A stretch of DNA of 64,000 nucleotides from Candidatus Poribacteria bacterium (GCA_963665285.1 OY762266.1:192001-256000); one strand, 5' to 3'. Numbered from the stretch's first letter, positions 36,709 through 45,580 are shown. Notes: generated by a model from the sequence alone, not told the origin. Program-made: numbers and translations.

Positions 36709-36724
36709 TGCAATCACTATGCCA
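36709..36724 (-). promoter_or_regulatory. Sigma54 (-24/-12) promoter of nosZ operon
   Basis: Minus strand TGGCAT-AGTGA-TTGCA, about 100 nt upstream of nosZ ATG. Confidence 0.8.
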
Positions 36725-36854
36725 TGATGACGGATCGATAAAGTCGAGAAGAGCATAAGGTGCGGAAGGTAAAAGCAGCAAGCCCCCGCTGACATTTTAC
36801 GCAATCACACCGAAGGTTTCAGGGTCTGGAAAAGTCAAGAAATAATGGCAAGAT

Positions 36855-36950
36855 TGACATTCTGTCACAAAATGGCAATCTGACCAGATTCTTGTCTGAC
36901 ATTTTGTCAAAACCTCCGATTTTAGCGAAAACCAGATTGACATTTTGTCA
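36855..36950. promoter_or_regulatory. Three phased palindromes TGACA-N3-TGTCA, candidate enhancer (UAS) for a sigma54 activator
   Basis: Sites at 36855-36867, 36897-36909, 36938-36950; start-to-start 42 and 41 bp. Confidence 0.7.
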
Positions 36951-37192
36951 AGTTGCGGTTTGAAACATGCGCGCGCACAATACAGGCAACACTAGCCGAA
37001 ATAGAATTTGAGCCCAGTAACCACGCGGGATTAGGCTTGATCTGAAGTCACCATTTCAATATAAGATCTAATCGATATAAATGTAGATCGAGCGGTCATA
37101 TCTGAAGTCCACCATATTTGGACTATTTCAAACTTGTCTCACCGCTATCTCCGCTTCTTGATTGATATTGCCTCCTAAGCAGCGATGTAAAT

Positions 37193-37221
37193 TTGACACA
37201 GCTTTGAGCCGAAGTTATAAT
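37193..37221 (+). promoter_or_regulatory. Sigma70 promoter
   Basis: Perfect TTGACA-17bp-TATAAT. Confidence 0.65.
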
Positions 37222-37265
37222 AGAACTGATTGATTTGCACCATAGCTCGATTGCTCATTCTTGAT

Positions 37266-37281
37266 TGGCATCGCTTTTGCT
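37266..37281 (+). promoter_or_regulatory. Sigma54 (-24/-12) promoter divergent from nosZ
   Basis: TGGCAT-CGCTT-TTGCT. Confidence 0.7.
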
Positions 37282-42667: not shown

Positions 42668-42711
42668 CGTGTTTTCTCCTTCGTGGGGTTATCTTTATCG
42701 TACTAGGACCT

Positions 42712-44076
42712 CTAATCCTTTCCCATCTTTCGATAGATGGTCCGTGACGAGATGCCGAGTAACTTCGCAGCTAATTCCTTGTCTCCGCCTGTCATTTTGA
42801 GTGTCTCTGAGATAAGGTGTTGCTCGACCGTTTCCACAGGGGTTCCCAGTGGGACAGTTATTGACTTCGGATCGTGGGGATAAGCCGAATCCTTGCCAAC
42901 CTTGTGAATTGACGCAGGAAGATCCATCTGTTCGATTTTATTGGATTGTGTCAACACCACTGCTTGCTCAATCGCGTTTTCCAATTCGCGAATATTGCCC
43001 GGCCAATGATAGGCTTCAAGGGCTTCCAACGCTTGGCGAGAAATACCTTGAATCGGCTTTTCCGCTTTTTCACTGTATTTTTTGAGGAAACAATCTACAA
43101 GCAGTGGAATATCCTCCCTTCGGGAGCGTAGCGGAGGGAGTTCGAGGGTAATCACATTGAGTCGGTAGAACAGATCAGCCCGAAAACTACCCGCTTCGAC
43201 TTCCATCCTCAAATCCTTGTTCGTGGCGGCGATTAAGCGTACGTCTACATTGAGGGACTTCGTAGCGCCGAGTCGCTCGAATTTACCATCTTGTAGAACC
43301 CGTAACAGCTTGACTTGTAGCGGTTTAGGCATTTCGCCAATTTCATCTAAAAAGAGTGTTCCCTCATCTGCCAGTTCAAAACGTCCAGGCTTGCTCGATT
43401 TGGCATCCGTGAATGCCCCCTTTTCATACCCAAAAAGTTCCGACTCCAACAACGTATCGGGCAGTGCACCGCAATTAACCTTGATCATCGGTTTATTCAC
43501 ACGCGGGCTTAAGGAATGGATCGCGTTGGCGAAAATCTCTTTGCCGGTCCCACTTTCACCAGCAATCAGAATACTAGCAGTGCTTGACGCTACCTGTTGC
43601 ACTTTCGTAATCAATTCACGCATGGCTGGACTTTTTCCGATGATGTTACCGAGAGAATGTTCGGCGTCCATCTGTTCGCGTAAAGATCTGACCTCAATAG
43701 CCAACATCTGCTTTTCAAGCGCGCGTGCGATGGTGAGCAGAATTTCAGAACGTTTCAACGGTTTTTGGATAAAGTGAAATGCGCCGGCTTGCATCGCTTC
43801 AACAGCTGTATCCACTTCGCCATAAGCTGTCATCAGAATGACCTCGATTTCCGGGGTAAGTATCTTGGCAGCTTTGAGCAGCTGTAATCCGTCCATGTTG
43901 GGCATTCTCAAGTCGGCGAGAATCAGATTCACCGGTTGATGACGAATCACTTCTAGGGCGGATTCGCCATCCGGAGCAGTTTGGATAGCGTATCCACCTC
44001 GTTTTAGGATCCTTTCAAGGGAGGCTCGAATAGGCGCATCATCATCAACCACGAGAACTAATTTATCTGCATTCAT
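42712..44076 (-). CDS. Sigma54-dependent response regulator (NtrC/AtoC family: REC-AAA+-Fis HTH)
   Basis: VLVVDDD, DLRMP; GESGTGKE, ELFGYEKGAFTDA, LFLDEIGE, WPGNIREL; AAKLLGISSRTIYRK. Confidence 0.95.
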   Translation of the reverse strand: MNADKLVLVVDDDAPIRASLERILKRGGYAIQTAPDGESALEVIRHQPVNLILADLRMPNMDGLQLLKAAKILTPEIEVILMTAYGEVDTAVEAMQAGAFHFIQKPLKRSEILLTIARALEKQMLAIEVRSLREQMDAEHSLGNIIGKSPAMRELITKVQQVASSTASILIAGESGTGKEIFANAIHSLSPRVNKPMIKVNCGALPDTLLESELFGYEKGAFTDAKSSKPGRFELADEGTLFLDEIGEMPKPLQVKLLRVLQDGKFERLGATKSLNVDVRLIAATNKDLRMEVEAGSFRADLFYRLNVITLELPPLRSRREDIPLLVDCFLKKYSEKAEKPIQGISRQALEALEAYHWPGNIRELENAIEQAVVLTQSNKIEQMDLPASIHKVGKDSAYPHDPKSITVPLGTPVETVEQHLISETLKMTGGDKELAAKLLGISSRTIYRKMGKD

Positions 44077-44126
44077 GATTATCGCCCCTCCAGAATGTGA
44101 TGTGTTTTGGTGATTTAGCGGGTGGC

Positions 44127-45365
44127 TTAGTCCGTTATTTTACCTTCGTTCGGTTCCTTGTCCCGTACTGGGAACGTGATAGTAAACTGTGTCCCTTGAT
44201 CAACAACACTTCTACAAAGAATGGAACCTTGATGATGCTTGATGATTTCCCCAGCAAGCGAAAGACCCAAACCGGTCCCACCTTTCTTAGTGGTGAAAAA
44301 GGGATCAAAGATCCGGTTCTGATCCGGTGGCGGGATGCCCACACCAGTGTCGGAGATTCGTAGCACAATCCGAGAAGATTCAACACTAGTTTGGATTGAA
44401 AATTCACCGCCTGAAGGCATGGCTTCGATAGCGTTTTTGAGCAAGTTATGCAAGACACGTTGAATCTGTTCGGCATCCAGTAAGGTAAAAGGCAAGTTCT
44501 CAGCAAGTTCTATAGAAAACGTGATTTGGGCTTGTTGTAACTGTGGCTTGATAAAGTCGGTAAATGTCTGTACGACAGTATTGAGAGATTCCTGCTCAAA
44601 TTCAAAGCGAGGCAATCTTGCAAACACCAGATATTCTGAAACAATGTTAGCCAAGCGTTCAACTTCGTTGTGAATGGATTTAAGAAGGTCATTCGCCTCT
44701 GCGACATCCATCTCTGGACCCTCCGCGACTTCATCGGCGAGCAGGTCCAAATTCAATTCCACCGAGGACAGCGGGTTGCGAAGTTCGTGAGCGACGCGGG
44801 CTGCCAGTTGTCCGATTGCAGCGAATCTTTCAGATTGAATGATCTGTGCTTCTAACTGCTGACGTTCAATATATGCCTCGATTGCTAATTGCATATCTAG
44901 CATGAGCACCTTCGTCAGAGCGAGGATGGCATTCTGCATGCGTTCTGGTTCATCGCGGTACGCCTGACATATCAGCGGAATTAGCAGATGGATATACAAA
45001 TTGTATGTCCCAATGTACCATTTCGGTTCTAGTCCAACACGATTGTGAGTATGTCCAATTTGCGAGCGCTCCGCCGCATACTGTTGATCGTAATTTCCTT
45101 CCGTCAATCTCTCAAGATAGCGTTGTTGTACATCTAATAACCGCTGCGTAATCAACTCGTCAGTTAGCAGTGAAGCAGTTTCTTCAAACCCTTGCAAATG
45201 TTGATAGAAACTGTGCACAATATCGGGAATATGGGGAGCGAAAACTTCTGTGAGTGCTTTAAGATGTTCTTCATCCTGTTGATTAAACTTCAGGAACGAT
45301 AGACGGAGCTGCAAGTCATCGTGGTGCTGGGTTTCAGTTTCAATCTTGTTTTTTTCAACTGGCAT
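44127..45365 (-). CDS. Globin-coupled sensor histidine kinase (protoglobin-HisKA-HATPase)
   Basis: Soluble N-domain LKF..QD...L, FYQHL (B10 Tyr), IGHTHNRVGLEPKWYIG (proximal His); AHELRNPL, NAIEA, DTGVGI, FFTTK, GTGLGL. Confidence 0.9.
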   Translation of the reverse strand: MPVEKNKIETETQHHDDLQLRLSFLKFNQQDEEHLKALTEVFAPHIPDIVHSFYQHLQGFEETASLLTDELITQRLLDVQQRYLERLTEGNYDQQYAAERSQIGHTHNRVGLEPKWYIGTYNLYIHLLIPLICQAYRDEPERMQNAILALTKVLMLDMQLAIEAYIERQQLEAQIIQSERFAAIGQLAARVAHELRNPLSSVELNLDLLADEVAEGPEMDVAEANDLLKSIHNEVERLANIVSEYLVFARLPRFEFEQESLNTVVQTFTDFIKPQLQQAQITFSIELAENLPFTLLDAEQIQRVLHNLLKNAIEAMPSGGEFSIQTSVESSRIVLRISDTGVGIPPPDQNRIFDPFFTTKKGGTGLGLSLAGEIIKHHQGSILCRSVVDQGTQFTITFPVRDKEPNEGKITD

Positions 45366-45564
45366 TTATCACGAGTCCTCTTAAACGAGATCCGGTTATC
45401 AATCCCTAGGTTGAGAGCATCCTTATCAGCTTAGGTTGAGCATTCGGGAATCCACGCCTAAGAGTTTAGCACATTTATTCAAGCATTGCACCCAGTTTTT
45501 ATATGAGCGAACAATTCTAAGGAGATGGTTCTTGAAATCTACCTCCTCAAGCACAACCAATTTA

Positions 45565-45580
45565 CGCAAGATTGATGCCA
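45565..45580 (-). promoter_or_regulatory. Sigma54 (-24/-12) promoter upstream of the globin kinase operon
   Basis: Minus strand TGGCAT-CAATC-TTGCG, 200 nt upstream of kinase ATG. Confidence 0.6.

Follow-up and report, generated by a model that had tools for sequence, protein, structure and literature searches.

A globin-coupled kinase and an NtrC-type regulator as the putative sigma-54 switch of the nitrous oxide reductase operon in a Poribacteria genus

Introduction

The closest described counterpart of the system treated here is NmpRSTU of Myxococcus xanthus, in which a heme-dependent protoglobin kinase (NmpU) acts on a kinase carrying a receiver (REC) domain (NmpS), which in turn acts on the NtrC-like regulator NmpR, with NmpT as a phospho-sink (PMC11841059, PMC6211767). 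NmpR is described as binding paired GCGCA-N5-TGCGC sequences at sigma-54 promoters, those of its own operons included, and its reported targets comprise a CBS-domain gene, a universal stress protein (USP), a cbb3 oxidase with a copper pump, HemN with a hemerythrin, and pilR (PMC11841059); low-oxygen activation of this regulon was proposed by the same authors (PMC11841059). Here we analyse a locus of related design in Candidatus Poribacteria bacterium, contained in a stretch of 64,000 nucleotides (OY762266.1:192001-256000, here G000:C1:192001-256000; the window) from a closed 6.26 Mb genome with 49.6% G+C, where a globin-coupled histidine kinase and an NtrC-type regulator stand close to a nos operon for the reduction of nitrous oxide (N2O). 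The host is an uncultured member of the Poribacteria. All coordinates are window positions unless a contig is named.

The gene layout comprises nosL-nosY-nosDF-nosZ on the minus strand, a divergent insertion sequence (IS) and CBS gene, and then, again on the minus strand, membrane protein genes, a 100-aa open reading frame (ORF), a USP gene, the regulator, and the kinase. We consider it probable, at roughly 0.6, that the nosZ operon and the divergent CBS gene are read from sigma-54 promoters with a shared three-site enhancer, switched by the adjacent heme-globin kinase and NtrC-type regulator. An earlier reading of the same DNA, referred to below as the sequence-only reading, had proposed a circuit of this kind, and its promoters, palindromes, and adjacent kinase and activator have all stood up; what did not survive is the description of the circuit as undescribed, self-contained, and possibly autoregulated in this genome. 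The first of these terms fails on the published account of NmpRSTU, which already has CBS and USP targets (PMC11841059, PMC6211767), and the other two are taken up below.

Comparisons were made within a genus set formed by this genome and 19 other species genomes (n = 20) and within a wider set of 176 Poribacteria genomes, in which G020 represents a sister genus (g2) and G163, G171, G075, and G127 belong to another Poribacteria family (f2). Among the 19 other genus genomes nosZ is present in seven, complete in G005, G007, G008, G012, and G015 and interrupted at contig ends in G006 and G011, the latter a draft assembly. The alignment of the spacer between CBS and nosZ covers seven genomes, G012 having been left unaligned with its longer spacer.

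Sigma-54 promoters and shared enhancer sites

The features that carry the argument are the following:

36710–36724, minus strand: sigma-54 −24/−12 element of the nosZ operon (TGGCATAGTGATTGC), exact match; 12 of 15 columns invariant in seven genomes; also present in G012
36855–36867, no strand: candidate enhancer site C (TGACATTCTGTCA), centred about −163 from the predicted nosZ start; conserved
36897–36909, no strand: candidate enhancer site B (TGACATTTTGTCA), about −205 from the predicted nosZ start; conserved
36938–36950, no strand: candidate enhancer site A (TGACATTTTGTCA), about −246 from the predicted nosZ start; common to the divergent CBS promoter
37193–37221, plus strand: sigma-70 consensus TTGACA-17-TATAAT, perfect (12/12), directed towards the CBS gene and 45 bp ahead of its sigma-54 element
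37266–37280, plus strand: sigma-54 −24/−12 element of the CBS gene (TGGCATCGCTTTTGC), exact match; 13 of 15 columns invariant in seven genomes
45566–45580, minus strand: sigma-54 −24/−12 core (TGGCATCAATCTTGC), exact match, 200 bp upstream of the kinase

The three copies of TGGCAY-N5-TTGC to which the sequence-only reading had drawn attention are exactly those present in the window, compared with a mean of 0.33 after shuffling, and three were reached in none of 100 shuffles. In the sigma-54 elements GG and GC lie 10 bp apart and the match is to TGGCAC-N5-TTGCW, with predicted transcription starts at about 36698 for nosZ and near 37292 for CBS. The three phased palindromes were likewise recovered: exact TGACA-N3-TGTCA occurs three times in the window, at 36855, 36897, and 36938, with spacings of 42 and 41 bp that correspond to four helical turns. 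Six exact copies are found in the whole 6.26 Mb genome, about the number expected by chance, and three of these are the ones at nosZ/CBS. Conservation sets these elements apart from their surroundings, since 55 of 69 columns are invariant in the promoter and palindrome features vs 108 of 607 in the background of the seven aligned genomes. The nosZ promoter, the CBS promoter, and the three palindromes appear as conserved islands in diverged DNA in all eight genus genomes for which the 5′ region of nosZ is available, including G012, where all five elements are present and the three palindromes are perfect. The nosZ-CBS spacer holds no FNR-type box with one mismatch or fewer, in agreement with the sequence-only reading, which had recognised no FNR/DNR box.

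A reading in which the sigma-54 words go unused and some unrecognised promoter of a different kind serves nosZ is, in our view, very improbable. On the nosZ side a single sigma-70-like site was seen, a weak one (9/12 match, 36822-36794), which lies upstream of the sigma-54 element and is conserved only in its AAATGTCA part, resembling a half-site by eye. The perfect sigma-70 consensus might also be invoked for such a promoter; it points at CBS, is kept in four of the seven aligned genomes (by eye), and the CBS gene may have tandem sigma-70 and sigma-54 promoters. Both −24/−12 elements, on the other hand, are near-invariant in eight genomes with diverging flanks, and sigma-54 is widely used by this genome, which encodes rpoN (Sigma54_DBD, 197 bits) and about 22 sigma-54 activators (Sigma54_activat), one of them inside the island, and contains 95 sigma-54 words vs about 24 expected at equal base frequencies. 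This last count is inflated, because about 19 TGGCAC-N5-TTGC copies between 1.62 and 1.66 Mb (G000:C1:1617482-1656778), several of them 126 bp apart on one strand, look like a coding-sequence repeat and not like promoters. A second, weaker Sigma54_DBD match (89 bits), in a 457-aa ORF at G000:C1:3945890-3946294, possibly represents a second rpoN-like gene. Two TGACATCATGTCC words that lie 42 bp apart at genome position 3796380 fall inside repetitive coding sequence and were for that reason not taken as an enhancer.

The kinase and the regulator

44127–45365, minus strand: globin-coupled histidine kinase, with protoglobin residues 1–166 (Tyr54, His107) and HisKA/HATPase core 167–412
42712–44076, minus strand: NtrC-type response regulator (REC, AAA+ sigma-54 activator, Fis-type helix-turn-helix [HTH]), assigned by profile matches

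Domain profiles agree with the proposed pairing of a protoglobin-HisKA kinase with a REC-AAA+-HTH activator, and the two genes are adjacent, 50 bp apart. The kinase reaches 151.8 bits for the protoglobin family PF11563 (cut-off 25) and also matches PF00512 (HisKA) and PF02518 (HATPase_c). Its residues 1–175 match the solved globin sensors HemAT (1or4, E 1e-16), that of Geobacter (2w31, 9.5e-15), and AfGcHK (5ohe, 3.2e-13). His107 aligns with HemAT chain residue 123 and Tyr54 lies in an FY motif common to HemAT and AfGcHK; we take these positions to be, respectively, the proximal His (F8) and the distal Tyr (B10) of HemAT/AfGcHK, and both residues are invariant in nine kinase orthologues. The regulator matches PF00072 (104 bits), PF00158 (244 bits), and PF02954 (HTH_8, E 8.8e-12), has the Walker motifs, and keeps Asp55, Thr83, and Lys105 invariant in nine orthologues, its closest paralogue in the same genome being 44% identical overall.

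The two parts of the kinase have different nearest relatives. Its globin domain (1–166) is 67% identical to that of a globin kinase of the sister-genus genome G020, and its core (167–412) is 71% identical to the core of a REC-kinase of G020, vs 27% to the core of the G020 globin kinase; among solved structures the core is best matched by those of ZraS and KinB. In G020 the REC-kinase adjoins an orthologue of the regulator which is 76% identical and has an identical HTH helix. From this pattern the kinase looks like a domain-swap chimera, and the swap likely collapses a multi-step relay of the Nmp type into a direct two-component pair. The distant globin kinase of G020 (41–43% identical) has neither an adjacent activator nor palindromes, and its context is uninformative on the regulator.

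A search of a large protein collection retrieved 22 clusters with the full kinase architecture at 60% identity or more, all the named ones from Poribacteria; the next matches beyond them cover the kinase core only, several with a receiver domain. A scan of the genome collection found relatives confined to the genus and G020, and a metagenome scan with the nine-orthologue kinase alignment kept 80 loci which match the generic kinase core only (31–43%), none with the globin part. This genome itself contains no close homologue of the G020 REC-kinase, the best core match reaching 37–40%.

Conservation and a wider regulon in relatives

Full-length kinase orthologues with 81–93% identity were found in 7 of the 19 other genus genomes (G005, G006, G007, G008, G012, G015, and G018), and the kinase-regulator pair lies 3.6–17 kb from nosZ in all five closed genomes that have it. 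The general gene order is TonB receptor, kinase, regulator, USP, a variable block, membrane proteins, CBS, and the divergent nosZ-nosDF, and the string from kinase, regulator, and USP to CBS and divergent nosZ is kept in G005, G006, G007, G008, G012, and G015. G018 has the whole string without nosZ. The linkage to nos and the conservation of the motifs, which the sequence-only reading had named as checks, are thus borne out within the genus and not in four f2 nos clusters (see below).

The third sigma-54 site, before the kinase, was seen in only three of eight genomes when the 400 bp preceding the kinase were aligned, because in G007, G008, G018, and G011 an extra cytidylate-kinase-like gene (PF13189) stands ahead of the kinase and moves the core. 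In these four genomes the promoter core (TGGCATCAAT[C/T]TTGC) and three upstream palindromes precede the cytidylate-kinase-like gene. The extra gene and the palindromes are gone from our genome, G005, and G015, where a promoter core of about 18 bp is left. The third site proposed earlier therefore stands as a conserved promoter core, without upstream palindromes in its own genome. Similarly, the architecture expected for autoregulation exists in relatives (G007, G008, G018, G011, and G020) and is not supported here, where the palindromes before the kinase promoter have been lost.

Further copies of the design are found in the fuller islands. A fourth set of palindromes with a sigma-54 site follows the USP gene in G007 (three palindromes) and in G008 (two perfect ones found); at the corresponding position in G018 there is a sigma-54 site, with no perfect palindrome found before it. 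The operon behind this set in G007 encodes an Hsp20, an MgtC/DUF4010 membrane protein, a second USP, a CYTH protein, and two CHAD proteins; in G012 and G008 the same block encodes a Lon-type protease and two additional Hsp20 proteins. In G020, three palindromes at 41-bp spacing and a sigma-54 site stand upstream of the operon for the REC-HisKA-HATPase kinase and the regulator, and two more such promoters head a ferrochelatase/multiheme cytochrome operon and a DUF2231 gene. The same enhancer and sigma-54 design before the kinase operon and before the Hsp20/USP/Lon operon would therefore point to a stress or hypoxia regulon, with nosZ as one of its outputs.

Perfect double palindromes (24–32 bp spacer) occur in 11 of the 176 Poribacteria genomes, all of one family, and in none of the 165 others; the backwards control gave none. 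Eight of these 11 have a regulator orthologue; in the other three it is truncated (G011), broken by a stop codon (G016), or missing, with only CBS and membrane-gene remnants left (G014). The genomes are kin, so the association with the regulator is not a set of independent events. In a scan of genomes for similar HTH sequences, the regulator type of HTH was confined to genomes with the island.

Two of these decayed loci can be described further. Contig C19 of G011 (L079:301-1789) carries the cytidylate-kinase-like gene followed by the C-terminal half of the regulator, the receiver half and the kinase being missing, possibly by an assembly error, since this contig is only 5.2 kb long. In G016 only a regulator fragment with a stop codon remains (G016:C396:1611-1817).

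The proposed circuit and the evidence against it

In the circuit that we favour, the heme of the globin domain would report O2, or possibly NO, and so set the autophosphorylation of the kinase, which would then phosphorylate Asp55 of the regulator. The phosphorylated regulator would assemble on the three phased palindromes and loop to the sigma-54 polymerase, opening the nosZ and CBS promoters; in the fuller islands of the relatives it would likewise open its own operon and the Hsp20/USP/Lon operon. Low oxygen is tentatively predicted to turn the regulon on, as proposed for NmpRSTU and as would suit an O2-sensitive NosZ. The studied globin kinases are active when O2-bound, and the kinase core here derives from the other kinase of the relay; both points bear on the sign of the switch.

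Several observations weigh against this circuit. The sigma-54 contact loop of the regulator reads GAFTDA instead of GAFTGA in all eight genus orthologues; the G020 orthologue has GAFTGA, and one other activator of the same genome also has GAFTDA. No palindrome lies within 450 bp upstream of the kinase promoter in its own genome. G014 keeps three perfect palindromes without the regulator, although the −24 GG of its CBS promoter reads GA (L071:6060-6090), and G011 keeps the nosZ promoter and sites with the kinase deleted and the regulator truncated. The f2 genomes G163, G171, G075, and G127 have a NosZ 84–85% identical to that of our genome, followed by nosD, with unrelated flanks in which no kinase, regulator, CBS, USP, palindrome, or sigma-54 site was found (the stretches read beside nosZ cover about 17 kb in three genomes and, for G127, only the 2.4 kb up to the contig end). 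Their regions upstream of nosZ differ among themselves. The tie of the circuit to nos is therefore a feature of this genus.

The most substantial objection comes from groESL. A genome-wide scan for a sigma-54 site with upstream palindromes returned a single other locus, C1:505861-505983, directly before groES-groEL, which includes one of the two groEL copies. Its three sites (TGACAAAATGGCA, TGACATTTTGTCT, and TGTCAAAATGTCA) and sigma-54 promoter are kept in all 20 genus genomes with diverged flanks, 12 of these genomes have the triple site and no orthologue of the island regulator, and the promoter sequence is present in 21 of the 176 genomes, i.e., the whole genus and one sister genus. A different protein must therefore read a near-identical word at groES. 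The circuit is accordingly not self-contained, as the sequence-only reading would have it, when the same design drives the Hsp20, USP, and Lon operons of relatives and a near-identical one drives groESL without the regulator.

These data lend some weight to an explanation which we still regard as unlikely, namely that a core, genus-wide sigma-54 activator of stress or heat shock, in charge of groESL, uses the palindromes, that nosZ, CBS, Hsp20, and Lon form a stress regulon, and that the globin pair controls something else or acts as a modulator. The other targets in relatives are indeed a chaperone (Hsp20) and a protease (Lon), and the sites retained in G014 and G011 without an intact regulator fit it as well. 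However, only the nosZ/CBS and groES loci score in our genome, where no other chaperone or protease gene has the site design. All sigma-54 promoters in the island use the palindrome site and the island encodes exactly one activator, and the palindromes precede the regulator's own operon in four genus genomes and in genus g2. Genomes that never had the island all lack perfect arrays. Such a core activator was sought through its HTH as the reader of the groES sites, and no candidate exceeded 48% HTH identity with the island regulator outside the island genomes. The groES sites are also consistently different, with a spacer that is always AAA and one constant mismatch each, compared to the mostly perfect island sites with variable A/T-rich spacers. 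These differences leave room, short of proof, for two related DNA specificities. The presence of the same word at groESL in regulator-free genomes raises the question of how activators come to share enhancer sites or to inherit them from one another.

The nos operon and its possible acquisition

29785–30696, minus strand: nosL, Pfam NosL E 3.6e-08; start codon uncertain because the ORF overlaps nosY
30255–31091, minus strand: nosY, ABC-2 permease, Pfam ABC2_membrane_2 E 1.5e-28
31095–34550, minus strand: nosD-nosF fusion of 1151 aa, TIGR04247 NosD 411 bits at residues 416–787 and ABC_tran at residues 880–1018
34616–36610, minus strand: nosZ, clade II (Sec-dependent) nitrous-oxide reductase, TIGR04246 843.5 bits vs a cut-off of 625

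NosZ remains under the cut-offs of the Tat-dependent type (TIGR04244, 409 bits, cut-off 625) and of clade III (L-NosZ, 203, cut-off 700). About 415 N-terminal residues of the nosD-nosF fusion have no family assignment; residues 1–167 and 173–349 match the same DNA of a relative by tblastn, which suggests an internal repeat. A hairpin in the nosZ leader (36644-36670) was rejected as a functional element since it is not kept in relatives in the spacer alignment.

In a profile search of the genome, NirK, NirS, and NarG had no match above the family cut-offs, and with nosZ present the organism therefore looks like a non-denitrifying N2O reducer. Any NO or N2O would then come from outside, and this bears on a variant of the circuit, rather unlikely in our opinion, in which the heme senses NO (or CO) instead of O2 and the reduction of N2O, the chaperones, and the USPs are turned on under nitrosative stress from neighbouring denitrifiers. 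O2, NO, and CO are all ligands of globin-coupled sensors, and a regulon with chaperones and a protease would suit a response to protein damage. Genes for NO detoxification, though, were not recognised in the island. The studied sensor relatives NmpU and AfGcHK are described as oxygen sensors in the published account (PMC11841059). As for the sensed ligand, the sequence does not discriminate O2 from NO or CO.

The high identity of NosZ between this genus and f2, despite unrelated flanks, suggests movement of the nos operon from one Poribacteria lineage to another. In G018 and G020 the circuit is present and nos is not, and we read nosZ as a late addition to what appears to be an older regulon. 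Tentatively, and just short of even odds, we would combine these observations into one history, in which a domain-swapped kinase shortened an Nmp-type relay and the resulting regulon then captured a horizontally moving clade II nos operon, so that nosZ would be switched by a single heme gas sensor through sigma-54 together with Hsp20, Lon, USP, and CBS, a “dormancy-like” gene set.

Other genes of the island

~37293–38706, plus strand: IS200/IS605-type element with tnpB only (37456-38622), Pfam OrfB_IS605 and Cas12f1-like_TNB; ends approximate, set from four relatives
38766–39224, plus strand: CBS-pair protein, Pfam CBS E 9.5e-32; true ATG at 38766 set by homology
39299–40696, minus strand: membrane protein gene with an in-frame TAA, 466–478 aa in relatives; no family assigned
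41169–41591, minus strand: 140-aa membrane protein, conserved in the island; no family
41662–41838, minus strand: LonB/LonC-like protease remnant within the 100-aa ORF, tblastn 80% identity over 59 aa; G012 and G008 have the gene intact
41906–42667, minus strand: tandem USP, Pfam Usp E 2.8e-22; last gene of the kinase-regulator string

The USP and CBS genes named in the sequence-only reading were confirmed by their Pfam matches, and so was the IS between the CBS promoter and the CBS gene, an element with an IS605-type TnpB inserted about 12 bp after the CBS −12 element and splitting the CBS leader. The in-frame TAA of the membrane gene (read as a 404-aa ORF) corresponds to Gln in relatives; the protein has no Pfam or NCBIfam match, and the NnrS-like label given to it in the sequence-only reading is not supported, PF05940 having no match in the ORF at E ≤ 10 and none in the genome at E ≤ 1. 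A full-length homologue has a weak, sub-threshold match to COX1 (30 bits). The island is thus partly decayed in this genome, with the IS in the CBS leader, the stop in the membrane gene, the Lon remnant, and no enhancer left upstream of the kinase. Still intact are nosZ and its accessory genes, both the kinase and the regulator, USP, and CBS.

From the TonB receptor gene to the kinase promoter (45600-46320) there are about 700 bp of non-coding DNA, rich in short hairpins and unalignable to the corresponding spacer of the relatives, with no ORF of at least 80 aa and no Rfam match at E ≤ 1. An Rfam scan of 28000-50000 at E ≤ 1 gave three chance-level matches only, none of them in this long spacer.

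Significance

Clade II N2O consumers that do not denitrify are looked to as N2O sinks and, to our knowledge, the signals that induce their N2O reductase are poorly known. If the proposed circuit is true, it would be the first described control of N2O respiration by a heme sensor through sigma-54, and the first control of nosZ based on neither Crp/Fnr nor NosR. Our literature searches on nosZ/N2O reductase, RpoN/sigma-54, and globin-coupled kinases found no paper on sigma-54 control of nosZ, and in the one paper that contains both nosZ and sigma-54 rpoN served only as a qPCR reference. The kinase, the regulator, and the 350-bp promoter make up a compact three-part set that could be rebuilt in E. 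coli despite the uncultured host, and the chimeric kinase would offer an example of phosphorelay shortening by the swap of a sensor domain.

Comparison with known systems

The Crp/Fnr-type control of nos genes (DNR, NNR, and FnrP, or NssA-C in Wolinella) resembles the proposed circuit in being a gas-responsive control of nitrogen-oxide respiration and differs from it in that no FNR-type box precedes the Poribacteria nosZ. NorR at norVW also combines three enhancer sites with sigma-54; it has a GAF domain whose non-heme iron senses NO, where the Poribacteria regulator has a receiver domain, and its targets are NO reductase genes.

AfGcHK of Anaeromyxobacter sp. Fw109-5 (PDB 5ohe) has the same succession of a globin sensor, with distal Tyr and proximal His, followed by HisKA/HATPase. 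The match is in the globin domain only, where HemAT (1or4) and the Geobacter globin (2w31) score higher, and the partner in Poribacteria is a sigma-54 activator, compared with the receiver-only protein which is the usual partner of AfGcHK. DosS/DosT-DosR of Mycobacterium tuberculosis comes close in its outputs, since these heme kinases for O2, NO, and CO act on USPs, an alpha-crystallin (Hsp20), a CBS-pair protein, and anaerobic-respiration genes. DosS and DosT are GAF-heme proteins and DosR is a NarL-type sigma-70 activator; the families differ, so the resemblance is confined to logic and gene content. The link of the DosR regulon to USPs has been pointed out in connection with Nmp (PMC11841059).

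NmpRSTU is, judging from its published description, the nearest of all. Both systems have a protoglobin kinase, an NtrC-like sigma-54 activator, multiple inverted repeats, and CBS and USP targets; the regulator's own operons also appear among the putative targets in the Poribacteria relatives G007, G008, G018, G011, and G020, and G020 even has a REC-kinase of the NmpS type beside its regulator orthologue. Set against that same description, the differences are threefold. The Poribacteria globin domain is fused directly to the core cognate to the regulator, with no relay intermediate encoded in the island, where genes for a hybrid REC-kinase (NmpS type) and for a phospho-sink receiver (NmpT type) were both absent. 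The sites are TGACA-N3-TGTCA in threes at 41–42 bp vs GCGCA-N5-TGCGC in pairs, and the outputs would be nosZ, Hsp20, Lon, and MgtC-type genes vs cbb3 oxidase, HemN, and pilR. What is new with respect to Nmp is the apparently chimeric, relay-shortening kinase, the different putative binding site, and nosZ as a predicted target.

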